DNA of 64,000 nucleotides from a virus (lineage: Duplodnaviria > Heunggongvirae > Uroviricota > Caudoviricetes): the IMG/VR virus record IMGVR_UViG_3300024268_000040. One strand, given 5' to 3'. The notes below the pieces were generated by a model. It had not been told where the DNA came from and did no database searches. It worked only from the letters and a program-made list of their open reading frames with translations. Positions 4,554 to 58,372 of this stretch are shown one piece after another; positions within the stretch are counted from its first letter, which is position 1; each line of letters starts with the position of its first letter. The translations under genes and the position numbers were made by a program.

Positions 4554-7079
4554 ATGGCTGTAAAAACTTACACAAAAGGAATTGCAACTAAATTAAGCAC
4601 AAATTTTAAGTCTACTGAATTTGACTGTCATGGATCTGGTTGCTGTTCTAAAACTTTAGTTGATGACAAATTAGTGGAATATTTACAAAAAATCAGAGAC
4701 CATTTTGGCAAGCCTGTAAATGTAAGTTCTGCTTATCGTTGTACTACACATAATAAAAATGTTGGTGGAGCAACTGGCTCTCGTCATATGAAAGGCCAAG
4801 CTGCAGATATTTATATTACAGGAGTAAAACCTGCCGAAATTGCCAAATATGCTGAATCTATTGGTATTTTAGGCATTGGTTTGTATGAAACTGATAAAGA
4901 TGGTCACTTCGTCCATGTGGATACTAGAACTACTAAATCTTTTTGGTATGGTCAAGCGCAAGCTAAACGCACTACTTTTGGAGGCGCAGTAACAACCGCT
5001 ACTCCTCAAAAAGAATTATACCGAGTAAGAAAAACTTGGGCTGATAGTAAATCTCAATTAGGTGCATATAGCATTTTAGATAATGCAAAGAAGACTTGTG
5101 ATAAAGCTGGTGTTGGTTATTATGTTTTTAATTCAAAGGGGGAAATTGTATATCCAGTAGCAAAAGAAGAGAAAGAAGAAAATGCTATAATCATTGATAC
5201 CTCTAAGGTTAATACAAATGCCATTGATGAAAAAGTAATGTGGAATTATTTTAAATCTAAAGGCTTAAATGATTATGGTATTGCTGGTTTAATGGGAAAT
5301 CTTTTTGCTGAATCTGGTTTACGTCCTTGCAATTTACAGCAGACCTATGAAAAATCTCTTGGTATGAGTGATGCTGAATATACTGCCGCAGTAGATGCAG
5401 GAATTTATACTAACTTTATTAATGATAAAGCTGGTTATGGTTTGGCTCAATGGACCTATTGGAGTTTGAAGCAAGAAATGCTCACTTATTTCCAAGCCAA
5501 TAAAAAATCTATTGGTGATGGTACTACTCAGATGGAATTCCTATGTCACCAATTGTCAACTAGCTACAAATCTGTATGGACTACTTTACAAACAGCAAAA
5601 TCTGTTTTAGAAGCTTCTAATGCAGTATTATTAAAATTTGAGCGTCCCGCCGATCAAAGCGAGGCCGCACAAAACAAGAGAGCAGGATATGGTCAAAAAT
5701 ATTATGACAAATATGCTGTTAAAGAAGAAGTTAAAATTGAAATCCCAAAAGAAGGAGGAAACGGAAAAATGAAGTATTCTGCTTCTAATAAACCCCTTGT
5801 ATGCATGCAAACTCAAAGCACTTGTTATAAAGGAACAAGTAAAATGACTGTTAAAGGCGTTTTATGGCATTCTACTGGTGCTAATAACCCTAATTTAAAG
5901 CGTTATGTGCAACCAAGTGACAATGCTTCTGATAAAGAGGAAATGTTAGCATTATTAGGTATAAATCAATATAAAAATGATTGGAATCATATTGAACGTC
6001 AAGCAGGATTAAATTGTTGGATCGGTAAATTAGCTGATGGAACTGTTGCTACTATATAGACAATGCCTTGGGATTATAAGCCTTGGGGTTGTGGTAGTGG
6101 TTCTAAAGGGTCTTGTAATAGTGGTTGGATTCAGTTTGAAATTTGTGAAGATGGATTAACTGATAAAACCTATTTTGATAAAGTCTATAAAGAGGCATGT
6201 GAAATTACTGCATATTTATGTGATATGTTTGATATTGATCCTTTTGGTACCGTCCGTGTTAATGGTATTGACGTTCCAACTATCTTATGTCATGCAGATT
6301 CTTATAAGTTAGGATTAGGCTCCAATCATGGTGATATTAATCATTGGTTCCCTAAATTTGGTAAATCAATGGAAACTGCTCGTCAAGATGTTGCTGATTT
6401 AATGGGAACTAAAGTATCTGTAATCGAACCAGCTGAGCCCGATAAAAAGGACGATGTACCTGCGGCCGCACCCTCTAATGAAATGTATCGTGTAAGAAAG
6501 TCATGGGAAGATTCAAAAAGTCAAATTGGAGCATATAGTCAATTACAAAATGCAAAAAATGCTTGTGATAAAGCTGGTATTGGATATTATGTCTTCAATT
6601 CCAAAGGAGAAGTTATTTATCCTGAACAGCCAAAGAAAAACGAAGTCATTGAGGCTGTAAATGATTTACAATTAGGTTAGGCAGTATCTTTAAAAAATGG
6701 AGCAAAATATTCTTCTGGTGCTTCCATTCCTTCTTGGTTATTTGGTAAGAAATTATATGTGCGTGAAATCCGTGATGACGGTAAAGTCGTATTTTCTACT
6801 TTAGCTTCTGGAGATATTACTGGTGTGACTTATGCTACTAATTTATTACCTTATAACGGAGATAGTATAGCAGCTCCAAAAGTACCGGAGTTTGAATCTT
6901 ATTTAGTTAAAATTGTTGCTGATGTATTAAATGTTCGTGCGGGAGCAGGCGTTTAGTATCGTATTAATACTCAGGTTAAAAAAGGTCAAGTTTATACTAT
7001 TGTAGGAGAATAGTCTGGTTGGGGCAAATTGAAATCTGGCGCCGGTTGGATTTCACTTAACTATACTAAGAAAATTTAA
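4554..7079 (+). CDS. Giant modular cell-wall hydrolase (endolysin), ~841 codons with 4 in-frame TAGs (6057, 6678, 6954, 7011).
   Basis: N-terminal M15-type peptidase motif (SAYRC..HN..VGGA..SRH..GQAADI), then an Amidase02_C-like wall-binding repeat (YRVRKTWADSKSQLGAYS) and a lysozyme-like domain (GIAGLMGNLFAESGL). After TAG 6057 comes an amidase-like domain with a second wall-binding repeat. After TAG 6678 come two SH3b-like repeats. Listed ORFs 4533, 6063 and 6759 share one frame. SD aagggag before ATG 4554. Confidence 0.7.
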
Positions 7080-7081: not shown

Positions 7082-7426
7082 ATGAATAAAAACAAAACTG
7101 CTCAAAAGCCCGCACCTAAAAAAGACACTGAATTCTCTAAAAGATTATTGATTCAAGAGTCACTTCTCTTATGGGTTGTGACTCTTGCATTTATTATACT
7201 CGCTTTTGTATGTATTTCAAATCAATATTTTGGTGAATTACCTTGGTTAACTGCAATGGCTATGGCTCCTTGGGGAGCATATGCTGTCGGCCAAGGCTTC
7301 TATTACCGAAAAGCAGAAAAAGAAAATACTCAAGGCGGTATAAAATATGAAACAGTTATGGCATAGTTGCAAACGAATGATGATGACCCATTAACTGAGT
7401 CATTTAGTGATAACGCTGCAGGATAA
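7082..7426 (+). CDS. Putative holin with two TM segments; in-frame TAG at 7364, stop TAA 7424.
   Basis: Starts 2 nt after the lysin stop. Two hydrophobic helices. Short charged tail after the TAG. Confidence 0.5.
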
Positions 7427-7441
7427 ATTAAACAACAAAAA

Positions 7442-7488
7442 GGCGAGATAGATGATTATTTTCATCTATCTCGCCTTATTTTTTTTTA
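7442..7488. terminator. Bidirectional rho-independent terminator between the convergent holin and tail-fiber genes.
   Basis: 14-bp stem ggcgagatagatga / tcatctatctcgcc, with a T-run on the + strand and an A-run upstream. Confidence 0.6.
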
Positions 7489-7491: not shown

Positions 7492-8928
7492 TTAAGTTTT
7501 ATAAAATATCTCTCCAGTTGCACCAGAAGAAGGGAGAGAGCTACCATAGTTCTGAACAATAACTTTTTGACAATATAATGGAGCATAATTTCCACTCTAC
7601 CAACCACCTCGACTAGCTACTCGAAAAGGTAAAGGGGCATAAGCTGTACTATTACCACTTCTTGGAGTTTCAAAAACTAATCCCCCATTATCAACATACA
7701 TGCATCCCAAAGTAAATGTTTCAGTGCCGGCTCCATAAAAATAAAATGGATCAGTGGAAGTAAAACTGATTGAACCACTCATAGTACCGCCACTTAATGG
7801 TAATACTTGATCTAAATAAGCAATTTGATGATGATGGTTAAAAGTAGTACGATTTGAACCATTCGCAAAATATAATTTATCAAACTAATGACTATAATAA
7901 AAAGCACCAAAAGCAGCATCACTCTAATACCAAGCAATACCTGTCATCCAACCGCTAACATCAGCACCAGCATTAGTAATTTCAGGTAAATTTTTATTAC
8001 CATACAACATTCGCAAATGAAATTTTCCTTCAGCCATGTCATAAAAATTATTATAATCATTAATACTACGAATTTCAACTGTAGCTGTAGTAGCTGACTA
8101 GCCAGACACATTAATATTCCAAGTACCAGAAGCTCCTCCGCCTGTTAGAGTTGGAGAATATGAATTATAATTGCTACTATCTAATACTCTTTTCCAAGGC
8201 TTTCCCACGCAAGCGCTTGAGTTAGTTCTATACCATAATCCGTTACTATCCTATACTCCAAACGCTAATTGACTAATCCAATCAGTATTACTTCCTGCTC
8301 CCCAAGCCATACTTAACCCATGTATCCATCCTGCAGCTCCACGAGGATTATCTTCTGCTGCGTGAATCATAGCAGCAGCAAAACCTTGTTTAGCAAGGTC
8401 ATTAAAAGTTACAGTAGAAGAACCTCCCACATTATTTGAATTATATACTTTAATATAATTATTTGAACCAGATGCAGGACATGCCCAATTACTATAATTT
8501 GCAGAAGTTAAAATTGGTTTCCAATCATTCCATGTTGTAGTATTCTTTCTTGAGCGTACTGCCATTCCGCCACTACCAGCACCATCATCTATCCAAAGCT
8601 ATGCTCCCCATCCTGATCCTTGCCCAATAGAGAGTACGGCACCATCATTTTTAAGTCCAGTAATATCACTTCCAATCCAAGTTAATTGCATTCCATTATT
8701 TAAAAAAGCATCAATATCAGCATCAGTATTTAATTTTGTCGCATTTTTATTTAAAATAGAAGCTCGACCAACATTCATATTTGCTGGAGTAATATAATAT
8801 ATATAATTATCTGATCCAATACAAGCAATTTTATTTACACTTGTTTTTGCCGTTGCTGCTGAAGTATATAGCCATTCTGATTTTAAATATTTTCCTTCAA
8901 TATGGCCATCAACTTTTAACGTTCCCAT
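7492..8928 (-). CDS. Tail fiber paralog 1 (~478 codons, multiple in-frame TAGs).
   Basis: Listed minus-strand ORFs 8599..8928, 8251..8565 and 7597..7782 share one frame, separated by TAG (cta on +). The 3' end was traced to TAA at 7492-7494. N-terminus MGTLKVDG. LPLSGGT-type fiber motif. Region 8110-8190 is ~85% identical to 13455-13540 in paralog 3. Confidence 0.65.
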
Positions 8929-9098
8929 ATATAAAATCTCCTTTCTCTCAAAGAGTATAAATCTATTTCTATATTATATTATTTTTCCTAAAGCATTTTT
9001 TTTCTTCTGGCCAGAAGAAAAAAAAACTCATATATGATTTTTTATATATAATTAGAAATATAACTCTTTTTATTTTGAGAGAAAGGAGATTTTATATA
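8929..9098. promoter_or_regulatory. Divergent late-gene control region. Two copies of the conserved late leader flank a perfect 34-nt palindrome tttttttcttctggccagaagaaaaaaa.
   Basis: Both divergent genes have an identical SD context, gagagaaaggagattttatatATGGG. The same ~95-nt leader recurs at 14330-14440 and 52241-52345. Confidence 0.5.
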
Positions 9099-10886
9099 AT
9101 GGGAAAATTATAGATTAATGGGGATTTGCTTCTTGCAGCTGGTAATGAAGATCGCTTTTTAACATTTAATTACACTGGTGGAACTGGATATGATTGGCGC
9201 ATAGGTTATTTAGGATCTGGTGCAGGTAATGAAAACTTTTTAGTATTTTAGAGCGATAAAGAAGGTAGCACCTTTTATAATGCTTTAAAATTTGGCTTAA
9301 CTACATTAAATGCTGAGTTCGGTGGAACTGTAACTGCTTCATCATTTATTGGTAATTTAAGTGGTAATGCGTCTACTGCTTCCAAGCTATCTGCGGCACG
9401 CACTTTCACTATTGGAGATAGTAGTAAATCTTTTGATGGTAGCGGGAATGTGTCTTGGACATTAGCGGAGATAGGGGCTTCTGATAGGACTTTATTATTA
9501 GGTAATTCTAAAGCGATTTGGATTGATGGAAATGCAAACACTTATTATCCTGTTTATATTAATATGGGGCACGGTGGTATTTTATTTGGATGGGAGACTT
9601 TATCAATATCTCGCCGATATAATGACAGTGCGCCCAATAGCTGGAATACATCTACTCATAGGGGCGGTTTAACTTTTACACTGCGATGGAGTGGTGACTC
9701 AGGATGGGGCGGAAATGATCATAATATTATGGTTGAAGAATTTAGTGAAACTTATTCTACAATGGTTGGTGGTATGACATTATCCGTTGATGGACTAATA
9801 GTTTGGTTGCGCGGCGGCGGAGCAAGATATTACTTGAGTAGTCCATATGGCTTAGCTGCTTATGCAACTGTTTATTATGACGGATATACTGCTGGTGATG
9901 GGCGCACCTATTCTGCACGCAGTTATAATGCAGATACTGTAGCAAGTGAAATTCATTCAAAATGGCTTGTACGACCATGGGGAATATTTGCTGGAACCGC
10001 ATCTAATGCTGATACTATTGATGGACATCACTTTAACTGGGATGGCAAAGGTGGGCAGCCCACTTGGCTATGGGGCGCTAATGAATATGGTAATAGCTAT
10101 GTGTATAATCCAGCTAATTTTAGTGTAAATTATGCTAATAGTGCTGGAAGTGCAGGTAGCTCCACAACTACTTCTTATCCAGCGGGATTTGTTTAGAGGG
10201 CATCCACATCAGATTGGGGTACTGTGCGAACTGGCTTAATTACGGAGTGGGATGCTGGCCCAAACAGTAATAAAGGCGCAGTGGCTTTTATGGCATATCC
10301 GAGTGCGAATGAAGTTAGTGTTAAAATTGATGGTTATTTTTTCTAGAATGAAGGTAATAATAGGGTATTGGATATTGGAGATATTCCTGTTAACAGTGCT
10401 TCAGCATGGTTAAATACTTCTGGGTGGTATAAAATCGCTACAGTAACTAAATACAGCGGAAATACTGGCCCTTTATCTGTATTATTAATTATTGGAAAGA
10501 ACTATTCATATTCAACTAGTGATATGTTTACTATTTTAGTTCAAGGCGGTTATTATAATACATAGTTTATTCCTCTTGGACATTGTGATAATGGCCTTGA
10601 TTGCTTTACTTATATTCGTTCCACTGGAGATGGGGCCGCAACTGGATTTGACATTGAAGTATATTTAAATACTCCTTCTGGAGGTAATAATTTTTATGTT
10701 AAAGCTGTTGCGCTAATCGGTAATGTTTCTTGTCATGCATTTGCCTCACCATCTGGGTCAGTAATGAAAACTTATCAAATTCAAAATTGTACCCATAATG
10801 GAACTTTTGGTACTACTGATCCAGCTTCTAATCCCTCTGCGATTCCTGGCTATGGTGAAACTGGTGCAATTTATTATAAAATTTAA
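9099..10886 (+). CDS. Tail fiber paralog 2 (595 codons; TAGs at 9111, 9249, 10194, 10344, 10563; stop TAA 10884).
   Basis: SD gaaaggag before ATG 9099. Translated codon by codon: MGKL-Q-INGDLLLAAGNEDRF... continues in frame into listed ORFs 9450 and 10368 with no TAA/TGA. C-terminus ...GAIYYKI. Confidence 0.75.
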
Positions 10887-10904
10887 TTAAATAAAAAAAA
10901 TAAA

Positions 10905-10945
10905 GGCGAGATATTGATTAATTTCAATATCTCGCCTTTTTATTG
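10905..10945. terminator. Bidirectional terminator.
   Basis: ggcgagatattga / tcaatatctcgcc hairpin flanked by A- and T-runs. Confidence 0.55.
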
Positions 10946-10950
10946 TTTAA

Positions 10951-11361
10951 TTAACAAACAGGAGTGATTTTATTCAAACTAACTTCTGCTTCAATCTTAT
11001 TAGTGATATAAGCAGTTAAGTCGCCATAAATCTCACTTAAATATTTCTTTGCATCATCAGTTAATACTGTCATAACAGCATTAAATGTCAAATCAAAAGC
11101 TTCTTTTTGAGCTTCTTTAGTAAATGCATTTTCCTTCTTTAATGCGTCAACATATGTCTGAGTAGTAGCAATAACACAAGCACAAATAGTATCATCGAGC
11201 ATTGCGATGTATTTATCCGCAGTATCATTATCAACCTTGTTTTGAATTTCTGCACTTTTTGCATTAATAAACTTTACCACATAGGCAGTTAATACACCTA
11301 ATAGAGGAATAACACATACTTGTAAAATTTCATATAATAATGGTAACCATTCCATAATCAA
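10951..11361 (-). CDS. Membrane protein, possibly a second holin (LLH-like).
   Basis: 136 aa with an N-terminal TM helix (MIMEWLPLLYEILQVCVIPLLGVL) and a charged amphipathic remainder. Last gene of a minus-strand late operon. Confidence 0.35.
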   Translation of the reverse strand: MIMEWLPLLYEILQVCVIPLLGVLTAYVVKFINAKSAEIQNKVDNDTADKYIAMLDDTICACVIATTQTYVDALKKENAFTKEAQKEAFDLTFNAVMTVLTDDAKKYLSEIYGDLTAYITNKIEAEVSLNKITPVC

Positions 11362-11549
11362 TCTTCCTCTCCAGTATGATCAATGCCCATCAACTTATCT
11401 ACACATTCAGTAAGGCTATTAATCATTTCTTGTAACCAATGGTCGCTTAAATCAGACCATTCTTTTACTTTTTTAATATAGGCGTCTTGCTCTTTAATTT
11501 GGCGCTCAAGTACTTCAATACGAGCTAATAATTCTGCATTGGTAGGCAT
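11358..11549 (-). CDS. Small coiled-coil protein.
   Basis: 63 aa. SD (aaggag) upstream on the minus strand. ATGA overlap with the downstream gene. Confidence 0.35.
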   Translation of the reverse strand: MPTNAELLARIEVLERQIKEQDAYIKKVKEWSDLSDHWLQEMINSLTECVDKLMGIDHTGEED

Positions 11550-11646
11550 TTTTAATTCTCCTTTACTTCATTAAAATTCGGATTTTATTCCGTATTATTT
11601 ATAAAATTTTAATATTAAATAACAAATGAGGTTTGACCAATTTAAA

Positions 11647-12240
11647 TTATCCGCCACACTATTTCCAATTAGTACCATCAACGCATATCCAAGGAATGCA
11701 TTGTTTCCAATTAGTACCATCAACACAAATCCAAGGTAATGCTCGTTGCCAGTTTGTCCCATCTGTATTTATCCATACCGTATTACCATCATAAGTTGCA
11801 TAAATGCTACAGCTGGTCATAAGATAACAAGACCATACTGCATCTGGATACCAAATATAAAAATAATAAGTAGTATTAGGTGATAACGATAAATTCTAAA
11901 TATTAAAAGTTACTGTTGAAGTAGCCTAATATACGGTTCTTGGAACAACTACTGTAGTTGTGCGAGTCTATTTTTTTAAAGTGTCAAAACTTGTAATTTT
12001 TGTAGATGTAATAAGTACATTATAAGTTTTCTAAGAAGTTGCTGAGCCGCTATATTTATCATAAGCATCAAAAGTAATGCTTAAGCTTGTTGTTTTGCCA
12101 CTAGACGGAGTTACAAACGGAATACCGCAAGCATAAAAAACAGAGTATTCAGTTTCATATCCGAACCATCGCCGGTCATCTCTGCCATTAGAGTGACATG
12201 GAACATAATTATCTTGTTGTGCTATATTTCCACTTTGCAT
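11647..12240 (-). CDS. Fiber-associated protein with a C-terminal tandem 12-aa repeat (L/I)PWICVDGTNW(K/Q) x3; several in-frame TAGs.
   Basis: Traced in frame from ATG at c(12238..12240) to TAA at c(11647..11649). SD aagggag 8 nt upstream. Starts 13 nt after the fiber-3 stop. The N-terminal ~35 aa of listed ORF 12031..12342 is antisense overlap and was ignored. Confidence 0.45.
11650..11765. repeat. Direct tandem DNA repeat of ~39 nt, about 2.5 copies.
   Basis: tttccaattagtaccatcaacgcatatccaaggaatgca, then ttgtttccaattagtaccatcaacacaaatccaaggtaatgct. Confidence 0.6.
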
Positions 12241-12253
12241 AATATTTACTCCC

Positions 12254-14329
12254 TTATCCAATAGTCTAATAATAAAGCGTGCCAACTCGAGCATTACCAC
12301 TAGGTTGATTTGCACCAAAATTGTGACAAGTATCTCCAGCATTAACTTTAATACCTATTTCGTATCCAACATCAGAAGGAATAGTATCCCAAAATCCATA
12401 ATTCTAAATAGAAGAATACCATTGATAAGATTCTAAAACAGTAATGTTTGCCTAAGAATAATTAACGTATTTCATCCACATGGTAAAATTACCAGTACTC
12501 TCATTATAATAGGCTTTAAAATCATCAATTCCATAAGGGCAAGAGCCATTATAGTTTAAACTTCCAACAAGAGGGGCCAAACCAGCGCTATTAACATCTA
12601 AAGTTAGACTAAAAATTCCAGTGCCCTAATATCTAGATGAAATTGCTAATACTAACCGAGCATTTCGCCATCCCCCAAGAGTCTCTTGGCAAATTTTTAC
12701 CCATTTTCCATTGTGAGTGCCAGGTTCGCCCCACATCGCAGTGGTTGATGTAAGTCTATTAGCTGTAGAAGCCTATCCTGCCGTGGTAGCATAATTTGCG
12801 GTACCTGTAAAATAATTAGCATGAATAGTCGCATCACCATTTGGTCCTCCAAAAACAAATTTAGTTGGAATAGGTCTAGCATCTGTTGCACGATATCCCA
12901 TATAAATTGTTGAATCTATATAGTTATTAGTGCCACCGAAATTAATTTCATTATTTTTCTCTGCTACAATACTCATAGTTCCATCACCTATGTTAATATG
13001 ACTATGAGATTGTGGTTTAAAAGATTCTTCACTTATTTCAGTTGAATCACTTGGTAAAATTGTATTAAATTGTGCAGTATGAACCCAATTATTTACATAT
13101 CTACCATTTAATAAAGAAACATCCCAATAACCATAACTATTTCCACCATATACTGCAACATATAAATATAATCTATTATTTGTAGCATCTTTATATAAAT
13201 AAAATGTTCGTTTTATTTTTCCTCCTATTTGCACTCTAGAAGTAGAATAACCAAAACCACCATTAGTATCACTCTATACTGTAATTAAATCAGATGAAGA
13301 ATGCTAATTTCCCCAAAAAGAACTGCTAACGCATAACACCCAACTCTAAAATTCAGAACCAACTTGAAAATATCCAAGTTCTAAAATATGTGTATCAGCA
13401 TCTGCGTAAAATCCTCCCCATGCTGTTCCATTATAAATAAGAGCTGATGCACCAGTAATGTTAATACCCCAAGTGCCAGAAGCTCCTCCGCCTGTTAAAG
13501 TTGGAGAGTATAAATTATAATTGGCAGAAGTTAGTAAAGTATGCCATGGAATATCAGTTAAAGTAGCATTAGGTTTTTGTATTCCTCTAATTGCAAATCC
13601 GTACTAACTACTTCCTGCAATTTGCATTTTACACACACCATCATGAAAATTTACACATCCGTAATATCCATCCCAGGGTTTTGCACCAGAAACTGTCACT
13701 TCATTTGATGCACGTACTTCAAAAAATCCGTTAAAAGTCAAATTATCAATATTATAAGAATTTCCAACATCTTCCCGAGTGAGTGTGTAGAAACCTCCAT
13801 TATTAGGTGTTAAAATTTTATAATTAGTACCATTTTTACGATGATATATATCAGTGTTATAGGTCTCAAGATAAATACTTTTTCCACTATTACCAGACCC
13901 GTAAACTGCCAAAAACAATCCATCTGATGAATTAGCAGCTAAATATGCATCTGTATTAATGTTTGTAAATCTTAAAGCATATTCAGCTTTTAATATAGCA
14001 GAATCTCCATGAAAATTAATACCATAAACATCAGCCCATCTAACAGTTGGTCCACCTAAATTATAAATGGCATCTCCTATTGGATAAAAAGTATTACTAT
14101 TCATGCGAAAACGAGGTTCTGCCTAAGTGTAAAATACTAAATCATTATTATTCGCATAACCGCTGCTAGCCATTCCACCAATACCAGCCCATTTAACTGA
14201 ACTATCACTAGCATTTAAAAATTTTATGCCTGGACCCCATCCAGTCGAATTGTAATTTAATGTTTGATGAAGTACCAAAGGCCAACTCTAACCATCGAGG
14301 TTAGATACATTAATTTTTAAAGCACCCAT
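12254..14329 (-). CDS. Tail fiber paralog 3 (~691 codons, many TAGs).
   Basis: Start MGALKINVSNLDG-Q-... behind the conserved leader. The frame was followed through listed ORFs 13604..14104 and 12773..13234 and the gaps between them, which contain only TAG. TAA at 12254-12256. Confidence 0.65.
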
Positions 14330-14440
14330 ATAAAATCTTCCTTTCTCTCAAAAATAAAAAGAGTTAAATTCTATTTCTAATAAAATATGAAAAATCTCAT
14401 GTATGTTTTTTTTTTTCTTTGGGCCAAATAAATTTAATTA
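14330..14440 (-). promoter_or_regulatory. Conserved late leader, copy 3.
   Basis: The reverse complement aligns with 9003-9098: ggcccaaagaaaaaaa...attagaaatagaatttaactctttttatttttgagagaaaggaagatttt. Confidence 0.5.
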
Positions 14441-14460
14441 TTCCGATCAGAGAAATTTGA

Positions 14461-14489
14461 GTTGATTTTTCAAAAAAATAATGGTATAA
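14461..14489 (+). promoter_or_regulatory. Sigma-70/sigma-A-type promoter, TTGATT-17-TATAAT with TG extension.
   Basis: ttgatt tttcaaaaaaataatgg tataat. Confidence 0.5.
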
Positions 14490-14533
14490 TATAACTACAA
14501 GAAAAATCTCAAGAAATTTGAAAGGAGAACGAT

Positions 14534-14866
14534 ATGTCAGATTATGGCGTAAAAGACATAAAGACGCTTGAAGGCATCGAAGCGATTAGACTTCGTCCTG
14601 GTATGATAGATTATTGTATTGAGCATCAGTATGAACTTCCACGAAGATTACAATATTATGCTAAATATTATCCAAATGTATCATTTTCCCAAGCATTGGA
14701 GTTATATTCTTTGTCTGTTCGAGAGGTTATTGTTCTTTTCCAAGCCAAACATTTATTTGACGCTTCTTTAAGTTTTGGTCGTGGTCTTATTTATGCAAGA
14801 GACAAATGGCTTGAAAAAATGTCCCAAGCAGAAAAAATTGCGGCCGCATACCTACTGGCGGAATAA
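14534..14866 (+). CDS. Small protein whose first ~25 aa duplicate the N-terminal arm of the topoisomerase B subunit.
   Basis: MSDYGVKDIKTLEGIEAIRLRPGMI matches AEYGVNQIKTLEGIEAIRLRAGMYI at the start of the 15695 gene. The DNA differs almost entirely at synonymous sites. The rest is unrelated sequence. Confidence 0.5.
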   Translation: MSDYGVKDIKTLEGIEAIRLRPGMIDYCIEHQYELPRRLQYYAKYYPNVSFSQALELYSLSVREVIVLFQAKHLFDASLSFGRGLIYARDKWLEKMSQAEKIAAAYLLAE

Positions 14867-14963
14867 GGGTCAGTTTCACCGATTTCGTCCCGGCATTGGT
14901 CCGGAATGGAAAATTGACTTTTATCAATTTTTATGATATAATAGAAAGGTAAGGTGAATTTCT

Positions 14964-15716
14964 ATGTATCAAATTTATAAAATAACTAATCAAAAAAATG
15001 GAATGGTCTATATTGGTTCATCAATTGAAGTTGAACGCAGATGGAGACAACATAAAGAAGCTTCCATTAATGAGAAAGACCATCATTATAATTATCCTTT
15101 AATGATTGCTTTTAGAGAGTTCGGTATTGATAATTTTACTTTTGAGATTATTGAAACTCTACCTTCTTGGGAAGAGATGATTGAAGCCGAACATAATTGG
15201 ATTGTAAAAGAAGATTGTGTAAAACCAAAAGGCTACAATCAGACTGATAAAACTGATAGCCCAATGTTTGATCCCTCTATCGCAAAAAAAATGAGTGATA
15301 CTAAACGAGTTAAATATGGTAAAAAAGTTTGTGAAATCTCTTCTAATAAAGAAATTGTCGGAGCATGGAATTCGTTAGCAGAAGCTGGTGAAAACACGGG
15401 TCTTGACCGATTTAAGATTAGTGATGTGTGCAATGGCCGACGTTTAACCACCGGAGGTAGAGTGTTTAGATTTACTGATGAAGAAGGTAATTTAATTGAA
15501 CCTGAAATAAAAGTAAATAAAACTCAAACCAGTAGAATTACAAAATCCAGTAGGAAAGTTGTAAAAATGAATGATAATAATGAAGAATTACAAGTTTATG
15601 ATAGCGTAGCACGTGCGGCCGCAGATAATAATTGCGACGCAAGTGCCATATCAAAAGTTTGTAACGGTTCAAGAAATAAATGTGGAGGTTTTAAATGGAA
15701 ATACCTAACAATGTAA
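14964..15716 (+). CDS. GIY-YIG homing endonuclease, free-standing, standard alphabet (no TAG).
   Basis: IYKITNQKNGMVYIGSS...RRWRQH motif set, with a C-terminal DNA-binding region. Inserted between the gyrB-arm ORF and the full topoisomerase gene. Confidence 0.85.
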   Translation: MYQIYKITNQKNGMVYIGSSIEVERRWRQHKEASINEKDHHYNYPLMIAFREFGIDNFTFEIIETLPSWEEMIEAEHNWIVKEDCVKPKGYNQTDKTDSPMFDPSIAKKMSDTKRVKYGKKVCEISSNKEIVGAWNSLAEAGENTGLDRFKISDVCNGRRLTTGGRVFRFTDEEGNLIEPEIKVNKTQTSRITKSSRKVVKMNDNNEELQVYDSVARAAADNNCDASAISKVCNGSRNKCGGFKWKYLTM

Positions 15717-17614
15717 ATAATGCTGAATATGGCGTTAATCAAATTAAAACCTTGGAAGGAATTGAAGCAATTCGTCTTCGTGCGGGAATGTATATCGGAA
15801 GTGTTGGACCCGAAGGTGTCAGACACATCACACTCGAAATCATTTCTAATGCAGTTGATGAATATTTAAATGGACATTGTACTCATTGCACCATTGACGT
15901 TGGAGAAGATGGCGTAATTTGTATTCATGACAATGGTCGTGGCGTTCCTTTTGGCAAGGCTGAGGATGGTAGTGAAGTTTTAGTTAATGTTTATACCAAG
16001 CTTCATACTGGTGCAAAGTTTGATAGCTCTGGCAAGACTGGCTATAATACCTCCGGTGGTATGAATGGTGTCGGTGCTAAAGCAACAAATGCATTGTCTG
16101 AAATTTTTACTGTTGTATCTTATCGTGACGGTAAAAAGGCTACAGCCGAATTTGCTCGTGGCGAGTTATTAAAATATAATGAAGTACAAGATCCCAATCA
16201 AAAAGTTACCGGCACAGCTATTATGTTTAAACCAGATGCCACCATTTTTAAAGAAGGCATTATGCTTGAATACGCTCCTCTCAAGAAGCAAATCCAAGAG
16301 TTAGCTTACTTATCTCCTGGCTTAGTATTTGAACTAAACTATAAAGACACTAAAGAAACTATTACTTCTCAAAACGGTATTCGTGATTACATTAATGACC
16401 TAAACGATGGTAAAAATAAAGTAACTTCTGTATTCTATACTGAAAGTATGGAAGATAGAATTGGTGTAAAAATTGCTATGCAATATAATGATACTTATAC
16501 TGATATGTATCGCTTATATACCAACTCCATTCCCAATAGTGCGGGAACCCACTTGACCGGTTTCAGAACCGCGCTCACTTCTACAATCAACGAGTATGCT
16601 CGTGAAAAAAAGCTACTCAAAGAAAAAGATGCCAATATTACTGGTGAAGAATTGAAGGAAGGTTTAGTTCTTGTCCTGTCCTTCATTATGCCTGACCCTG
16701 TTTTCTCCGGTCAGACAAAGGATGTTCTCTCCAGTAGTGAGGCTCGTACCGCAGTACAACGATTGACCGCAAGAGAAATTAAAGTTTGGCTTGATGCAAA
16801 TCCAAAAGATGCCAAAGCAATCGTAGATAAGGCTCTTCTGGCTCGTGCGGCCCGTGAAAAGGCAAAGAAAGCCAAGGAAACCGTGCGGAAGGTCGATAAT
16901 AAGCGGCGTGTACTCTTACCTGATGTATTGAGTGATGCCAACTCTAAGGATCGTCACCTCTGTGAAGTATTCCTCGTTGAGGGTAAATCCGCTGCCGGTA
17001 CTACAATCGAAGCTCGTGACCGCAATACCCAGGCTGTTTTCCAGCTTCGTGGTAAGATTTTGAATGTTTTGAAAACTGATTTACATAAGGCTCTTCAGAA
17101 TAAGGAAATTAGCGGTATGATTGACGCCTTCGGTTTGGAAGTTAAAGATGGTAAGGTTATCGTTGATGAATCTAAGCTGAGATATGGCAAGATTATTATC
17201 ACCGCGGATGCTGATGTCGACGGAAGCCACATTCGAGTCCTGTTCCTTACATTCATTTGGAAATTCTGTCCCGAGCTTATTGAAAAGGGATATATTTATG
17301 CAGCAGTACCTCCTCTATATAAAGCAACATATGGTACCAATATCAAGTATCTCGTAAATGATGCTGCGCTCAATGAATTTAGAGCTGGTATGAAGAGATC
17401 TTTTGAGCTGGGTCGTATGAAAGGCTTAGGTGAGATGGACCCAGATGAAATGGCTGAAACTGTTATGAATGCTAAGACTCGTATTCTTAAACAGATTACT
17501 ATGGAAGACGCAGCAGCAGTCGCGCAGACATTTATGAGTTTAATGGGAGAGTCGGTTACGCCCAGAAAGAAGTTCATTGAAGAGAACTCTTGGAGGGCTA
17601 ATATTGATGTCTGA
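15695..17614 (+). CDS. Type IIA DNA topoisomerase ATPase/TOPRIM subunit (GyrB/ParE/T4 gp39-like), 639 aa, TAG-free.
   Basis: GHKL motifs (EIISNAVDE, DNGRGVP, GG.NGVG). TOPRIM motifs (LVEGKSAAG, ADADVDGSHI). Confidence 0.9.
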   Translation: MEIPNNVNNAEYGVNQIKTLEGIEAIRLRAGMYIGSVGPEGVRHITLEIISNAVDEYLNGHCTHCTIDVGEDGVICIHDNGRGVPFGKAEDGSEVLVNVYTKLHTGAKFDSSGKTGYNTSGGMNGVGAKATNALSEIFTVVSYRDGKKATAEFARGELLKYNEVQDPNQKVTGTAIMFKPDATIFKEGIMLEYAPLKKQIQELAYLSPGLVFELNYKDTKETITSQNGIRDYINDLNDGKNKVTSVFYTESMEDRIGVKIAMQYNDTYTDMYRLYTNSIPNSAGTHLTGFRTALTSTINEYAREKKLLKEKDANITGEELKEGLVLVLSFIMPDPVFSGQTKDVLSSSEARTAVQRLTAREIKVWLDANPKDAKAIVDKALLARAAREKAKKAKETVRKVDNKRRVLLPDVLSDANSKDRHLCEVFLVEGKSAAGTTIEARDRNTQAVFQLRGKILNVLKTDLHKALQNKEISGMIDAFGLEVKDGKVIVDESKLRYGKIIITADADVDGSHIRVLFLTFIWKFCPELIEKGYIYAAVPPLYKATYGTNIKYLVNDAALNEFRAGMKRSFELGRMKGLGEMDPDEMAETVMNAKTRILKQITMEDAAAVAQTFMSLMGESVTPRKKFIEENSWRANIDV

Positions 17615-21688: not shown

Positions 21689-21768
21689 TTCGTGTTTGGG
21701 TATAGAGTAATTATAGACGAAGACATAAGATTTCTATATATTGACGTCTATGATTTCTATGAGTTGAC

Positions 21769-21797
21769 AAAATGAAAAAAATTTTCTATAATATATA
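21769..21797 (+). promoter_or_regulatory. Promoter TTGACA-17-TATAAT.
   Basis: ttgaca aaatgaaaaaaattttc tataat upstream of ligA. Confidence 0.5.
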
Positions 21798-21816
21798 TGT
21801 AATTGAGGAGAAATAA

Positions 21817-23808: not shown

Positions 23809-23811
23809 TTG

Positions 23812-23840
23812 ACAAAAAGAAAAAAATTTTGTATAATAAA
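23812..23840 (+). promoter_or_regulatory. Promoter TTGACA-17-TATAAT.
   Basis: ttgaca aaaagaaaaaaattttg tataat. Confidence 0.5.
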
Positions 23841-23870
23841 ATCGTAAAGATTAAGGATGAAAATTTTCTG

Positions 23871-24071: not shown

Positions 24072-24100
24072 TTGACAAAAGAAAAATTTTTTGATATAAT
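24072..24100 (+). promoter_or_regulatory. Promoter TTGACA-17-TATAAT.
   Basis: ttgaca aaagaaaaattttttga tataat. Confidence 0.5.
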
Positions 24101-24167
24101 ATTTACATAACCGAAGAGGTTAGAAAAAAATCCAAACAAAAAAATTTTTAGAAAGAGGTATTTTATT

Positions 24168-24458: not shown

Positions 24459-24497
24459 AGGGGTAAGATTGAAATATATCTTACCCCATTTTTTCCA
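24459..24497 (+). terminator. Rho-independent terminator.
   Basis: ggggtaagat-tgaaat-atcttacccc hairpin plus T6. Confidence 0.6.
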
Positions 24498-24502
24498 TCA
24501 TT

Positions 24503-25492
24503 ATGGAATGGTTGATTTTACTCGCCTCTGTGCTCGTTGCTGCCGGATTAGGCGGCTTTATCACATATCGACTGTTTAGATAGCGGCTATTTGCCGTCCA
24601 GGAGTTCGACAAGTCGATTGCTATGAAAAACGAGCAATTAAGAGAAGAAAATAAGATTTTAGAAGAGAATAATCAAGATTTATTCAATCAAAATGATTAT
24701 CTAAAATCTGAAAAAATCAAGCTGGATATTCAAAACCAATCTGCTAAAGAGTAGTTGGAGAGCCTCAATGGCAGTATCTCAGCTATGGAAAAGTAGGCTC
24801 AAGAGGCCGCTGAACTATTCTATGCGTCTCGTATGTAGGCTGCATAGGAGAAACTCGCGCAATCACTTCAAGAAGAAAACCAAAAATATCAAGATAATAT
24901 AATTGGTTTTTAGACTGAATATGATAAAACTGTTGCTGATATGTTAGAAGCTTTTCAAGAGTTATCTGATAATGTAGCTGTTATGCGAGCTACAAATGAC
25001 GCCGCAGTTGCCGCAGCCAAGAGAGCCGCTGAAATGAAAGATTAGTAGGCTTTTTATCGCATTTAGTTATCTGACGCAGATATTCACGAAATTGAATTAT
25101 TGCGATAGGTTGAACCCTATTTGCGAGATAAGGAGCCTTTGAATAAAGTCATATGGAAATGCTATTACGAAAAACCAACCACCGACCTTATTGGTCGAGT
25201 AATTGGTACAGGAGTAAAAACTGGAATTTATAAAATTACAGAAATTGAAACTGGTAAATGCTATGTTGGTTAGGCTGCTAATTTAGCAGACCGTTGGAAA
25301 TAGCATATTAAGCGTGGTGTAGGCGCAGAAACGCCAACCCGCAACAAACTCTATCCTGCAATGATTGCGGCCGGCCCAGAGAATTTCACTTTTGAGGTCG
25401 TCGAAATCTGCGATCGCTCTGCGCTCGATGCGCGTGAGGACTACTGGCAGGATTATTTCAAGGCGAAAGAATTTGGATACAGTATAAAGTAA
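24503..25492 (+). CDS. Membrane-anchored coiled-coil protein with a C-terminal GIY-YIG nuclease domain; 12 in-frame TAG codons in 330.
   Basis: N-terminal TM MEWLILLASVLVAAGLGGFI, then a long coiled coil, then GIYKITEIETGKCYVG-Q-AANLADRWK-Q-HIKRG...ENFTFEVVEICD...ARE.YW. The TAGs fall where the two other phage GIY-YIG proteins have Gln (YIGQS, RWRQH). Ends at TAA 25490. Confidence 0.7.
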
Positions 25493-25503: not shown

Positions 25504-25782
25504 ATGTATAGAATTATTGATAGTCGTGGCTCCGGTAAGACCAGTAGATTGATGCTCTTGGCAAAAGAAACTGGTGCGAAAATCGCTTGTAGTAATCCTT
25601 CTGCTATGCGTCAAAAAGCATATGCATATGGCATTACTGGAATTGATTTTATTCCATATAGCGACCTCTTCAATGGTGCTATCGACCCCGAAGATAAGGT
25701 TATGATTGACGAGATTGAAATTTTCGTTAGAGAATATATTGACGGACGCCTTACTGGATATACTCTGTCAGAGGATGATTGA
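25504..25782 (+). CDS. Small P-loop protein (GSGKTS), function unknown.
   Basis: 92-aa ORF with a Walker-A-like motif. Confidence 0.4.
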   Translation: MYRIIDSRGSGKTSRLMLLAKETGAKIACSNPSAMRQKAYAYGITGIDFIPYSDLFNGAIDPEDKVMIDEIEIFVREYIDGRLTGYTLSEDD

Positions 25783-25783
25783 T

Positions 25784-26674
25784 ATGACAAAAGCAGATAA
25801 ATATATGTATCATATGATTGTAGAAATTATGCGTTATGGATATAAGGATATTAATCCTCGTCCTAAGTACGCAGACGGCACTCCCGCGCATACAATTTCT
25901 GTCAATCACACTTTTCGTAAATACGATTTGAGTAACGGAGAATTTCCGATCTGTACCCTCCGTCCGCAGGCTTGGAAAACTGGTATCAAAGAAATTTTTA
26001 CCATTTACTAGAAGCCAACCAATGATATCGCAACTATGCACGAAATGGGTGTGACTTGGTGGGATGAGTGGGACATCGGCGACGGCACTATCGGTCAGCG
26101 CTATGGTGCTACTGTAAGTCGTTATGACCTTATTAATAATCTTATCAAAGATATTGAGAAAGACCCATATGGTCGTCGCAAAATTGTAAGCCTATGGCAG
26201 GAACAGGATTTACATGAGACTCCTGGCCTCGCCCCATGTGCCTTCCTTACCATTTGGAATGTGCGTGGCGAATATCTTGATATGATGCTGGTTCAGCGTA
26301 GTGGTGATATGCTTACTGCTTCTGGTCCAGGAGGTATCAACGAAATTCAGTATGCGGCATTGCTGATGATGATTGCGCGACACACAGGTTATAAGCCCGG
26401 TGTATTTAGCCATGTCGTTGCAAACGAGCAGATTTACGATCGTCATATGGATGCCGCTAAAGAGATGATGGCGCGTTACAGCGCTCGTGATCTCGAAGAA
26501 CAATATGCTTGGGATGAAGGTTATCAAGATAATACTAATGCTGAAATTTTCCAGCGTCCACGCATGGACCTCAATCCCGCAAAAACCAATTTCTACGATA
26601 TGACTATCGAAGATTTTGAATTGACTGGTTATCATCCCACCAAACCTCAACTGAAACTGGAGCTGGGTATATGA
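25784..26674 (+). CDS. thyA: Thymidylate synthase ThyA with one in-frame TAG (26009).
   Basis: SD gagga before ATG 25784. Listed ORFs 25706 and 26036 share a frame. EIFTIY-Q-KPTNDI aligns with E. coli ELLWFL-Q-GDTNIA. Catalytic LAPCAF (PCHA-like) motif. Confidence 0.9.
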
Positions 26675-27165
26675 TTTCAGCAATTGTTGCAGTTGATAAT
26701 AATTGGGGGATTGGATATAAAGGGGAACTCTTGGAGCATTTACCTCCCGATATGAAGTATTTCAAAGAGCTTACTACTAGCCATGTTGTAGTAATGGGCC
26801 GTAAAACCTGGGATTCCCTACCCAATAAACCACTCAAAGATAGACTCAATCTTGTTATTACTTCTGGTGAGCGCCAATATGCAGAAATGACTTGTTTTAT
26901 TGGAATGGCTGAAGCAATGGCTCGTCTCGCTCATGTTGAAGATGATGAAGAATGGTTTATCATTGGTGGTGGCTCTATTTACGAGCAACTACTTCCTTTG
27001 TGTGACCGTGTTTATGTAACAAAAATTCTAAAAGACCATAAAGATGTAGATACCTATTTCCCAAATTTGGATAAAGATCCTAAATGGGAGGTCAGCACTT
27101 GTACTGAACTAAGAGAATACAAGGATATTTACTATGCATTTCTGACTTATGACAGAATTAGTTGA
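26671..27165 (+). CDS. folA: Dihydrofolate reductase.
   Basis: ISAIVAVDNNWGIG...VVMGRKTW...LVITS motifs. ATGA overlap with thyA. Confidence 0.9.
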   Translation: MISAIVAVDNNWGIGYKGELLEHLPPDMKYFKELTTSHVVVMGRKTWDSLPNKPLKDRLNLVITSGERQYAEMTCFIGMAEAMARLAHVEDDEEWFIIGGGSIYEQLLPLCDRVYVTKILKDHKDVDTYFPNLDKDPKWEVSTCTELREYKDIYYAFLTYDRIS

Positions 27166-27166
27166 T

Positions 27167-27195
27167 TTTTTGAAATAAATTTGTTATAATATATA
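27167..27195 (+). promoter_or_regulatory. Promoter TTGATT-17-TATAAT.
   Basis: ttgatt ttttgaaataaatttgt tataat. Confidence 0.45.
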
Positions 27196-27233
27196 TACAA
27201 GGTAAAAATAAAGAAAGTGAGTTATGAAAAATA

Positions 27234-29560: not shown

Positions 29561-29598
29561 TCAGGTCGGGGCGTTCCGCTCCGACTTGATTTTTTTAT
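29561..29598 (+). terminator. Rho-independent terminator.
   Basis: Imperfect GC hairpin gtcggggcg-ttc-cgctccgac followed by T7. Confidence 0.5.
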
Positions 29599-29632
29599 AA
29601 TTTTTTGGTATAATATAGTATAAGAAAATTGA
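29597..29632 (+). promoter_or_regulatory. Promoter with extended -10 and a conserved downstream box tggtataatatagtataagaaa.
   Basis: The same 22-nt box recurs at 39843-39864 upstream of the Pol III gene. Confidence 0.45.
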
Positions 29633-32435: not shown

Positions 32436-32946
32436 CCACGATTATATTCATACGAGTTTGAAAATTTTGGAAGAAATCACTAAGCGTTCTGGTGGTGTCA
32501 AACTGAGAGAAGATAATATCTTGTTTATGTTATCTACTCGATTGAAAGATATCTGCAACCAACATGGTGTGTTTATCATGTCAGCCACTCAGTTGAACGG
32601 TGATTACCAGGATAGTAAAACTCCAGACCAGAACTTACTGCGTGGTGCGAAAGCTATCGCAGATAAGATTGACTATGGCTCCATTCTTCTTTCTGTAAAA
32701 GATGATGATTTGGTAGCCTTAGAAAATATATTATCCTCTAATATTTTTGAAAGACCTACAATTAAGATGTCAATTTACAAAAATAGACGAGGTAGATATA
32801 AGGGCGTAATTTTATGGTGTAAGGCAGATTTGGGCGTGTGTCGTATTAAACCAATGTTCTGCACTACCTATGATTATGAAATGGTGAGTATTGACGATGT
32901 TCGTATTAGAATTGACGAAGAATCAGCCTTCGAGTGCGAAGAGTAA
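32436..32946 (+). CDS. dnaB: DnaB-family helicase, exon 2 (5' boundary approximate).
   Basis: NILFMLSTRLKDICNQHGVFIMSATQLN matches the DnaB H3/H4 region EISRSLKALAKELNVPVVALSQLNR. Stop TAA 32944. Confidence 0.7.
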
Positions 32947-35116: not shown

Positions 35117-35157
35117 TAAGTTAGTGGTGATCTACATGAAAGGAGGTTGAATACTTT

Positions 35158-39825: not shown

Positions 39826-39829
39826 CAAT

Positions 39830-50442: not shown

Positions 50443-50452
50443 AATAGCAAAA

Positions 50453-50500
50453 AGGGCGAGACATTGAAATTAATCAATGTCTCGCCCTTATTTTTTTTTA
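50453..50500. terminator. Bidirectional terminator.
   Basis: agggcgagacattga / tcaatgtctcgccct hairpin plus T-run. Confidence 0.55.
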
Positions 50501-52240: not shown

Positions 52241-52345
52241 ATATTAAAATCTCCTTTCTCTCAAAATAAAAAGAGTTATATTTCTATATAATATTAAATT
52301 TTTTATTATTATTCTTTCTTATTTTAGGCCAAAATATAATAATAA
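52241..52345 (-). promoter_or_regulatory. Conserved late leader, copy 4.
   Basis: The reverse complement reads ttttggcctaaaat...atagaaatataactctttttattttgagagaaaggagatttta. Confidence 0.5.
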
Positions 52346-52403
52346 TTTATTTAGATTTTTTATATCTATATAGATAAAATGAGAAAAAGGAGGAAAGATA
52401 TCT

Positions 52404-58287: not shown

Positions 58288-58372
58288 TTAAAAATGTTCT
58301 CCTTTCCTCATATATTTTTTTCATCTATACATTATGAAAAACTTCATAGAACATTTATATTATTTTGGCCTC

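Follow-up and report, generated by a model that had tools for sequence, protein, structure and literature searches.

The tail fibers of phages P2, Mu, P1, lambda and the T-even group are mosaic, and fiber segments are exchanged among them horizontally at short conserved motifs. Other phages carry several fibers or spikes per virion, as CBA120 does with its TSP1-4 and as is known for G7C, SP6/K1-5 and the Klebsiella phage PhiK64-1, and their receptor-binding proteins (RBPs) dock via defined adaptor domains and are usually encoded in one cluster, while invertible fiber systems are represented by Gin of Mu, Cin of P1 and the R64 shufflons. Here we describe five fiber genes, F1 to F5, found in a 64,000-nucleotide stretch (hereafter the window) of the ~181-kb genome of an uncultured tailed phage from gut or metagenome samples (IMG/VR record IMGVR_UViG_3300024268_000040), and compare them with these systems and with gut phages that use genetic code 15, in which late structural and lysis modules are scattered over the genome (bioRxiv 10.1101/2021.08.26.457843; PMC9523058; PMC10607447). 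For a Bacillus phage subcluster, distinct combinations of tail fiber and lysin genes are reported (PMC10674732).

Our analysis makes it likely that F1 to F5 are late-expressed tail-fiber or RBP genes of a phage that reads TAG as glutamine (Gln), F1-F4 belonging to one mosaic family and F5 to a second, and each lying on a self-contained cassette. The gene models were obtained by translating TAG as Gln and trimming to the first ATG, and are listed here together with a block shared by two of the genes.

7492-8928, minus strand: F1, fiber-like, 478 amino acids (aa), 6 in-frame TAG, MGTLKVDG...GEIFYKT
9099-10886, plus strand: F2, fiber, 595 aa, 5 in-frame TAG, MGKL(TAG)ING...GAIYYKI
12254-14329, minus strand: F3, fiber-like, 691 aa, 11 in-frame TAG, MGALKINV...GTLYYQTIG
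50504-52240, minus strand: F4 (locus B), fiber, 578 aa, 7 in-frame TAG, MGTLKVNG...GTIYYKI
56086-58287, minus strand: F5 (locus A), a different fiber class, 733 aa, 9 in-frame TAG, MATDLKLK...TLTISFP
8092-8173 (in F1) and 13442-13523 (in F3), minus strand: internal junction block, 83% DNA identity over 82 nucleotides (nt)

An earlier note on this DNA, made from the letters alone, had described five fibers under the span 7492-14329; only three lie there, its fourth paralog being F4 at 50504-52240, and the same span also carries a holin gene, a 63-aa gene and a gene we call D. Its N-terminal anchor MG(T/K/A)LK(V/I)(D/N)G is present in F1-F4, with two amendments, a TAG (Gln) codon at position 5 of F2 and Val at position 8 of F3, so that the motif reads MG(T/K/A)L(K/Q)(V/I)(D/N)(G/V); it starts exactly four open reading frames (ORFs) in the whole window, and the same four proteins end in G·(I/L)(Y/F)Y(K/Q)…. 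The endings it gave for the second and fourth paralogs (IYYKI) and for the first (IFYKT) recur as GAIYYKI, GTIYYKI and GEIFYKT in the translations with TAG as Gln. The ~85%-identical block it saw in the first and third fibers is real, at the revised coordinates and identity given above, and encodes ...YSPTLTGGGASGTW.IN..., the F1 copy reading …YSPTLTGGGASGTWNINVSG…. Fiber 5 does have a different N-terminus (MATDLKLK), and its gene ends at 56086 rather than 56074; the protein contains about seven tandem, shaft-like 21-aa repeats, and its C-terminal end is conserved in the locus-A genes of four related loci (L009, L010, L017 and L019).

No close relative of the lineage has been described: megablast with 6-15 kb and 15-40 kb gave no match in INPHARED, tblastn with the GyrA of the window against the same database gave at most 41% identity and unannotated records only, and the papers on phAss-1 and on the GuFi phages do not describe this lineage. 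The phAss-1 fibers are of the pectate-lyase type, unlike F1-F5. Like the fibers of P2, Mu, P1, lambda and the T-even phages, those described here combine a conserved N-terminal end, a variable, shuffled body, junction motifs and a small gene after the fiber (here D after F3), but no sequence relationship is detectable, both termini are very short tags (~8 residues for the N-terminal one, ~6-20 for the C-terminal one), and each gene is a transcription unit of its own and is TAG-recoded. With the multi-RBP phages the genome shares several receptor-binding genes, presumably displayed together, at loci that are hypervariable between close relatives; unlike in those phages, four fibers with the same 8-residue N-terminus are spread over three loci and no adaptor domain was detected with Pfam. 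The likeness to the code-15 gut phages lies in TAG being concentrated in the genes for structural and lysis proteins, in a mostly standard-code replication region, in scattered recoded modules and in recoded GIY-YIG endonucleases, whereas here the holin gene has no TAG, no suppressor tRNA is found in the window and no close described relative exists. In the Bacillus subcluster, close relatives reportedly differ mainly in fiber and lysis genes, which echoes the movement of the holin gene with the fiber cassettes that we describe below.

The earlier observation on the fibers was confirmed only once TAG was translated as Gln. With translation table 11, the region 7.4-14.4 kb holds only fragments, with ORFs of at most 166 aa; with TAG as a sense codon, long frames open in the fiber region and in the right arm of the window, and each fiber gene keeps its frame throughout, across 5-11 in-frame TAG and with zero TAA or TGA interruptions. 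TAG occurs at conserved positions that hold Gln in relatives (positions 161 and 713 of the anaerobic ribonucleotide reductase NrdD, 330 of PhoH and 535 of the endolysin), and the TAG codon of F2 stands where many homologs starting MGKLQVNG or MGNLQING have Gln. Codon counts point the same way: the five fiber genes use CAA 32 times, CAG twice and TAG 38 times, and five replication (early) genes use CAA 55 times, CAG 46 times and TAG once. Independent gene calls on identical ENA contigs gave products of 691, 197, 63, 134, 595 and 478 aa. Together, these sequence patterns indicate that TAG is Gln across the fiber genes.

The segment 14.9-50.4 kb carries replication genes (gyrase B, gyrase A, NAD ligase, ThyA/DHFR, a DnaB-like helicase, primase, Pol III alpha, NrdD/NrdG, dUTPase and RuvC) and is almost wholly in standard code; the holin gene and the 63-aa gene likewise have zero in-frame TAG. 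Occasional in-frame TAG codons do occur in "early" genes (two in NrdD, 44571-46862; one in Pol III alpha, 39850-43779; one in ThyA, 25706-26674; three in a RecJ-like gene, 35140-36897), so the recoding is genome-wide, though strongly enriched in late genes. As a separate observation, the gene at 24473-25492, inside the mostly standard-code early region, encodes a protein with a C-terminal GIY-YIG domain (Pfam, 4e-9) as well as a transmembrane segment and a coiled coil, and contains 12 in-frame TAG, and its homolog in L001 contains 10.

With TAG read as Gln, the fibers prove to be related at the protein level: F1 and F3 are 27% identical over 245 aa (E=4e-14) and F2 and F4 24% over 367 aa (E=5e-11), so that the similarity covers 245-367 residues and is not confined to the leader or Shine-Dalgarno region; such confinement is what the earlier note had named as fatal to its claim. 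The relationship is, at the same time, a loose one. Mutual identity among F1-F4 is just 21-27%, and what they have in common comes down to ~8 N-terminal residues, ~6-20 C-terminal residues and short junction motifs, so the "common scaffold" proposed earlier was overstated. The closest relatives of each of F1-F4 are in other phages, at 74-91% over segments; F1-F4 thus resemble such segments elsewhere much more closely than they resemble one another and are not recent in-genome or tandem duplicates, which indicates family members acquired and reshuffled separately.

The end motifs were counted in a set of 237 metagenomic homologs of F4 and F1. The N motif starts 54 of these and the C motif ends 85, and the two go together, since the C motif is present in 48 of the 54 proteins with the N motif and in 37 of the 183 others (Fisher p=2.5e-20). 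The core of the C motif hardly occurs away from the protein ends, with 11 matches among 73,139 internal positions. The F1/F3 block PTLTGGGASGTW turned out to be an instance of a general junction motif, P[TSV][LF][TS]G.G[AS][STY]G.W, found in 77 of the 237 homologs at variable positions, and F2 and F4 have further junction motifs in common.

The assignment as tail fibers or receptor-binding-type proteins, which the earlier note had made, is borne out by family matches. For residues 130-297 of F2 the match is PHROG 23676, "tail fiber protein", at 5.6e-46, and for F4 it is PHROG 10903 at 3e-11, with weak matches to tail-fiber PHROGs besides; segments of F1 and F4 also recur in proteins that carry Peptidase_S74 (endosialidase chaperone), PTR, Phage_fiber_rpt, Mtd_N, Gp53-like_C, Phage_T4_gp36 and BppL_N domains. 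From these comparisons, F1-F4 are best described as members of one large, very mosaic fiber family, and F5 as a second class with a repeat shaft. In IMG/VR, fiber relatives amounted to one weak locus for F4 and none for F2, and an exact search for the leader gave 0 matches.

The mosaic interiors noted earlier are plainly visible in F4, where residues 1-113, 94-234, 193-311, 210-485 and 312-470 match different proteins at 64-87% identity, often shifted in the partner. Exchange of cassettes between related genomes, which the earlier note had proposed to look for, is equally evident at loci A and B: the flanking genes of L009, L010, L017 and L019 are 84-100% identical to those of the window, while the locus-B fibers of these close relatives share 21-25% identity with the window's, and F5 shares 15-21% with the other locus-A fibers; the termini are conserved in both cases. 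At locus B of L019, homology breaks at 52872, in the repeat region of D2, a gene divergent from F4, and restarts at 50521, in the last F4 codons and the terminator; the L019 locus-B fiber is in turn 88% identical to residues 1-155 of F1.

The third site, between the endolysin gene and gyrB, is an island at 7.36-14.45 kb that holds F1, F2 and F3. Homology to L001, L004 and L018 stops at ~7360-7362, left of the F1 terminator, and homology to the gyrB promoter of relatives restarts at 14442-14452. L001 and L004 lack the island and have the holin gene alone between endolysin and gyrB. In L018 the island runs from endolysin to gyrB with all genes on the plus strand (a 567-aa fiber, a D homolog at 90%, a holin at 85%, a 264-aa fiber, then gyrB), so that the F3-D-holin block of the window is inverted relative to L018 and L001. 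The 567-aa fiber of L018 is a chimera, its residues 1-177 being 86% identical to residues 1-177 of F3 and its residues 161-291 being 84% identical to residues 124-258 of F1; the DNA of the F1-like segment is 91% identical, against 74-82% for neighbouring core genes, which points to recent exchange. By this comparison, the island at 7.36-14.45 kb represents an expansion to three fibers that is specific to the lineage.

In L009, L010 and L017 the holin gene is found at locus B, its place in the window, L018 and L001 being the gyrB locus, and a stretch from the last 27 nt of F2 through the terminator and the holin gene into the 63-aa gene (10860-11472) is 82% identical to 16740-17349 of L009, at locus B; by these alignments, the holin gene travels with fiber cassettes. 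The sequence comparisons thus show that, between related genomes, whole cassettes have been replaced, intragenic chimeras have formed, cassettes have moved among three loci and the F3-D-holin block has been inverted, and the earlier suggestion that the fibers are a recombination substrate holds for whole cassettes, gene segments and block inversion alike.

Each fiber gene appears to be bounded by its own expression signals, as listed here.

7437..7480, no strand assigned: bidirectional hairpin terminator, AAGGCGAGATAGATGA...TCATCTATCTCGCCTT, ends F1, left island edge
8929..9098, no strand assigned: divergent F1/F2 promoter-leader region, with a palindrome at 8995-9026 centred on TTCTGGCCAGAA
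10900..10941, no strand assigned: bidirectional hairpin terminator common to F2 and the holin operon
14330..14452, minus strand: F3 promoter-leader, GGCC at 14422, right island edge
50449..50492, no strand assigned: bidirectional hairpin terminator of F4, at the F4 end
52241..52403, no strand assigned: divergent promoter-leader region of F4 and D2, GGCC at 52327, likewise arranged in L009 and L010
56042..56076, no strand assigned: hairpin terminator after F5, AAGCGAGATAGATA...
58288..58370, minus strand: F5 promoter-leader, GGCC at 58367, TATAGATGA

F1-F4 share a near-identical leader, including the Shine-Dalgarno sequence, that ends ...AACTCTTTTTATTTTGAGAGAAAGGAGATTTTATAT-ATG, and its 14-mer core TTGAGAGAAAGGAG occurs 7 times (with at most 2 mismatches) against 0.49 expected. 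Upstream of all five fibers lies a GGCC-centred palindromic element ~80 nt upstream, followed by a T(A/T)TAGA(A/T)A box, and within the window this GGCC/TATAG architecture is found only at the fiber and D2 genes; it is also present in L009 and L010. At the other end, a hairpin scan found terminators consisting of a 14-18-bp GC hairpin with a (G)GCGAGA(T/C)A stem and flanking A- and T-runs, which by their form are bidirectional. The repeated promoter regions are ~100-120 nt long and 72-88% identical, and the terminators ~60-80 nt and 80-89% identical. Each fiber gene thus has the makings of a self-contained cassette with its own putative promoter and terminator. The early genes look quite different upstream: at least 10 near-consensus extended -10 promoters (TTGACA-N17-TGnTATAAT) precede them, at 14460-14493, 14911-14943, 21764-21802, 23809-23847, 24072-24110, 27159-27200, 29583-29617, 38324-38358, 39820-39853 and 47370-47410, quite unlike the fiber-cassette upstream regions, which suggests use of host sigma-70/sigma-A early in infection.

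In the reading we prefer, a cassette consists, in order, of a putative GGCC late promoter, the leader with its Shine-Dalgarno sequence, an 8-residue N-terminal tag, a variable body with junction motifs, a short C-terminal tag and a hairpin terminator. Because the promoter architecture is restricted to the fiber and D2 genes and the fibers depend on TAG suppression, all cassettes would be transcribed together and late. Several different fibers would then be present on one virion at once, giving multivalent recognition and not switching; the N-terminal octapeptide would dock them at a common tail site, and the repeated promoters, terminators and junction motifs would supply the matching arms through which ordinary homologous recombination acts in co-infected cells. 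A broad host range, which the earlier note had suggested, is a reasonable inference from the presence of multiple fibers. The region would then illustrate how an uncultured, recoded gut phage arranges host recognition, in several autonomous cassettes at three hot spots, and the promoter, leader, N-tag, C-tag and terminator could serve as boundaries for finding or engineering receptor-binding modules in this lineage. The ideas behind this have long been established, be it mosaic fibers, accessory genes beside fibers, multi-RBP phages, hypervariable fiber loci or recoded late genes; less ordinary are the very short, strictly terminal and co-occurring end tags, the standardised promoter and terminator of each cassette, and the repeat handle of the D and D2 proteins described below.

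A number of results weigh against this reading. ARAGORN found zero tRNA genes, suppressor tRNA(CUA) included, in the 64-kb window of the ~181-kb genome and in 7 related loci, although published surveys detected phage-encoded suppressor tRNAs in only ~40% of TAG-recoded phages. A sigma-70 scan of the fiber upstream regions gave background-level scores, and their role as promoters is inferred from conservation only. F1, F3 and F5 have no direct match to curated families in Pfam or PHROG, a sequence search of the PDB with F2 and F4 gave no meaningful relative, and the neighbours at loci A and B provide no tail or baseplate context. Structure prediction was of little help: the AlphaFold2 monomer model of P0001, a proxy for F4 (74% identical to F4 residues 210-578), had a predicted local distance difference test (pLDDT) score of 55.8 and was mostly of low confidence, with only a beta-sandwich at 270-415 predicted confidently, and the best Foldseek match to the PDB, at E 0.02, was not significant. 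An octapeptide is, moreover, very short for a docking domain.

The alternatives were weighed against the same evidence. The fragmented table-11 ORFs and the failure to find a suppressor tRNA in the window or the fetched loci are what one would expect if TAG were a true stop and the region a graveyard of decayed fiber pseudogenes, yet decay would hardly leave frames intact over 5-11 TAG per gene without a TAA or TGA, replace CAG specifically, or put TAG at Gln positions of the essential, conserved NrdD, PhoH and endolysin, and the same pattern is established in published code-15 gut phages; we regard decay as scarcely credible. The DNA similarity between the window's fibers is concentrated in the leader and first codons and in the last codons and terminator, and it could therefore be argued that the shared ends are purely regulatory, the genes otherwise unrelated and the paralogs an artefact of expression signals. 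This highly improbable reading is already refuted by the sequence comparisons, since protein similarity is significant across 245-367 residues, hundreds of metagenomic proteins keep the end motifs at the amino-acid level, allowing for conservative substitutions, the N and C tags co-occur, and internal modules are 64-91% identical to fibers elsewhere. More serious, though still unlikely, is the proposal that these are other virion-surface or cell-wall-binding proteins (head or neck fibers, decoration proteins or depolymerase-type spikes) built with fiber-like modules and anchored by their N-termini away from the baseplate. F1-F3 adjoin lysis genes (endolysin, holin) and not recognisable tail genes, and the lack of direct family matches for F1, F3 and F5, a predicted structure that is only a generic beta-sandwich, and the uninformative neighbours of loci A and B all fit such proteins; on the other side stand the strong match of F2 to a tail-fiber PHROG, the tail-fiber-specific domains of segment-sharing homologs (T4 gp36, BppL_N, Gp53-like_C and the endosialidase chaperone), the replacement of fibers between near-identical genomes, which is the usual signature of host recognition, and the position of a D2-like gene in L016 after a DUF859 siphovirus tail protein.

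The earlier note had also considered the host range "switchable", which would mean site-specific inversion or recombination at the inverted leader or terminator copies, alternating the expressed fiber. The locus does resemble the Gin, Cin and shufflon systems in having inverted repeats beside fibers of opposite orientation and, in a few family members, a Shufflon_N-like segment. Perfect 25-nt inverted leader copies lie at 8928-8952 and 9074-9098, at the F1 and F2 leaders, inverted repeats also connect the F2 and F4 ends, and, compared with L018 and L001, the F3-D-holin block runs the opposite way. Every fiber gene is, however, a complete unit that has a promoter region, Shine-Dalgarno sequence, ATG and terminator to itself, so that an inversion would leave the choice of expressed gene unchanged, and there is neither a constant N-terminal exon nor any promoter-less C-terminal segment. 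The 25-nt repeat is explained by mirrored promoters that flank a palindrome, the 121-nt spacer between its copies being a palindrome with both mirrored promoters, and an invertible F1/F2 promoter was rejected on this ground, on the lack of orientation variation, and also since the upstream region recurs at F3 and F4, where no inverted partner accompanies it. No recombinase was found in Pfam scans, in the gene tables of identical contigs or in the translations of 28 ORFs of at least 150 aa in 14.9-50.5 kb (the window being 64 kb of the ~181-kb genome), nor was a reverse transcriptase domain in the Pfam scans of the window or the gene tables, and there is no pair of repeats resembling the template and variable repeats of a diversity-generating retroelement in or near the fibers and no sequence variation between samples. 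The exact protein of the window's holin occurs on 23 contigs, and 4 further places among these had mostly the same proteins as neighbours as the four loci that were compared (L012-L015, independently assembled from four samples). Over 8.9-20.4 kb these four loci follow the order of the window and differ from it by no more than 1 mismatch, showing no rearrangement, in assemblies that are consensus sequences in which minor variants could be missed. By these comparisons, the phage recurs across samples with a stable island, and the block inversion is a fixed difference between diverged genomes. A programmed switch is thus disfavoured and in our estimate very improbable, and by its sequence features the locus belongs neither to the invertible-switch nor to the diversity-generating retroelement families. 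Preferred over all of these remains a set of separately acquired fiber cassettes that would be expressed together.

The other genes of the island and the gene opposite F4 are as follows.

10951-11355, minus strand: holin, 134 aa, no TAG, matching PHROG 13712 (holin) at 1e-37, last gene of the F3-D-63-aa gene-holin unit
11358-11549, minus strand: 63-aa coiled-coil gene, upstream of the holin gene
11647-12240, minus strand: gene D, 197 aa, 6 in-frame TAG, 13 nt downstream of F3
52404-52985, plus strand: D2, 193 aa, divergent from F4, with a variable jelly-roll and three (K/R)(I/V)WNGSSWV·A·PY repeats

The holin is 78-92% identical in relatives, where its gene adjoins gyrB or the locus-B fiber. 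Gene D encodes a variable beta domain and C-terminal W·(V/T)DGTNW repeats (a 42-nt tandem at 11657-11740) and is 90% identical to the gene that follows the island fiber of L018. D and D2 are distant paralogs in a small family without a curated entry, whose members combine a very variable domain of ~150 aa with three tandem (K/R)(I/V)WNGSSWV·A·PY repeats, usually C-terminal and sometimes N-terminal. They always adjoin fibers (in the window, L009, L010, L016, L017 and L019), including on L016, a distant standard-code contig. The D2 model is a jelly-roll with a pLDDT of 76, and its matches to domains of receptor-binding type (phi812 baseplate, lambda J, the influenza HA head and a tailspike C-domain) are weak (E ~1e-3, template modelling score at most 0.37); D and D2 may possibly be an extra binding module on a conserved repeat handle. 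The idea that D2 is a fiber-specific chaperone co-varying with the locus-B fiber was unsupported: the D2 proteins of L017 and L019 are alike at their ends (both 184 aa, with the first and last 24 residues identical), but the neighbouring locus-B fibers differ, being 457 aa and 396 aa long with different termini. The variable domain of D2 thus does not strictly co-vary with the neighbouring fiber, which makes a dedicated chaperone role doubtful.

A more speculative proposal, which we put forward tentatively and hold to be rather doubtful, is that the terminal peptides are assembly tags that make any fiber body "plug-and-play", MG(T/K)L(K/Q)(V/I)NG at the N-terminus and ...SLPSSG··G·(I/V)(Y/F/W)(F/Y)(K/Q)(I/T) followed by the stop codon at the C-terminus. 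The N-tag would dock by strand addition at one common tail site, much as the N-terminal tail of the adenovirus fiber does on the penton base, and the C-tag would be recognised by a partner, one candidate being the fiber-adjacent D/D2, in which the number of WNGSSW repeats, three, could correspond to that of the chains in a trimer, and which could place a further, variable jelly-roll domain for binding at the tip of the fiber. Were this so, the tags and the dedicated promoter and terminator would constitute a standard cassette system for exchanging host recognition across a large group of gut Firmicutes-type phages. The terminal motifs in any case offer a simple search key for hundreds of unannotated metagenomic fibers. 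Neither the N-terminal 58-71 residues of F1, F4 and F5 nor the C-terminal 44-52 residues of F1-F4 gave a Pfam domain at E up to 10, a result compatible with a docking mode not yet described, and an interpretation of the C-tag as an Mtd_N-type motif was dropped, as it had no Pfam match even at that threshold; in the P0001 model, the C-terminal tag region has a pLDDT below 50.

At locus A, relatives carry a second fiber gene directly downstream of the gene in the F5 position (10001-11308 in L009, 5129-6073 in L010 and 9584-10234 in L017); it starts MGNL(TAG)ING or MANLVLK, ends ...SSTAGEIWIVA and is absent from the window. On the other side of F5, the genes at 58423-59040 (205 aa) and 59062-60825 (587 aa) have a common N-terminal domain and co-vary with the F5-type fiber: their identity to L019 is 92% and 67%, respectively, whereas the 205-aa gene is 39% identical to 199-aa counterparts in L009, L010 and L017 and the 587-aa gene ~28-30% (BLAST) in L009 and L010. 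By this pattern, the two may be attachment partners of the locus-A fiber.

Beyond the fiber loci, the 5' end of gyrB is duplicated around a homing-endonuclease gene (14534-17614): an ORF at 14534-14866 starts as the gyrB N-terminus (24 aa, 96% identical to that of L018) and then diverges, and it is followed by a GIY-YIG gene at 14964-15716 and the functional gyrB at 15695-17614, which is uninterrupted in L001, L004 and L018. The DnaB-like helicase is apparently split as well, into ORFs at 30386-31375 and 32458-32946 with a second GIY-YIG gene (31561-32241) between them, and no group I intron reached the Rfam threshold there (30386-32946). The multidomain endolysin (4554-7079, 841 aa) is separate from a secreted or membrane-anchored "Phage tail lysozyme" protein (36931-37821; Pfam Phage_lysozyme2, 8e-22), whose standard-code gene lies amid the replication genes. 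Finally, a flotillin/Band_7 (SPFH) gene with an Ala/Glu-rich coiled coil at 722-2242 has a GC content of 50%, against ~35% around it, which suggests acquisition from a host, and it is present in L001, L004 and L012 and absent at the same position in L018.

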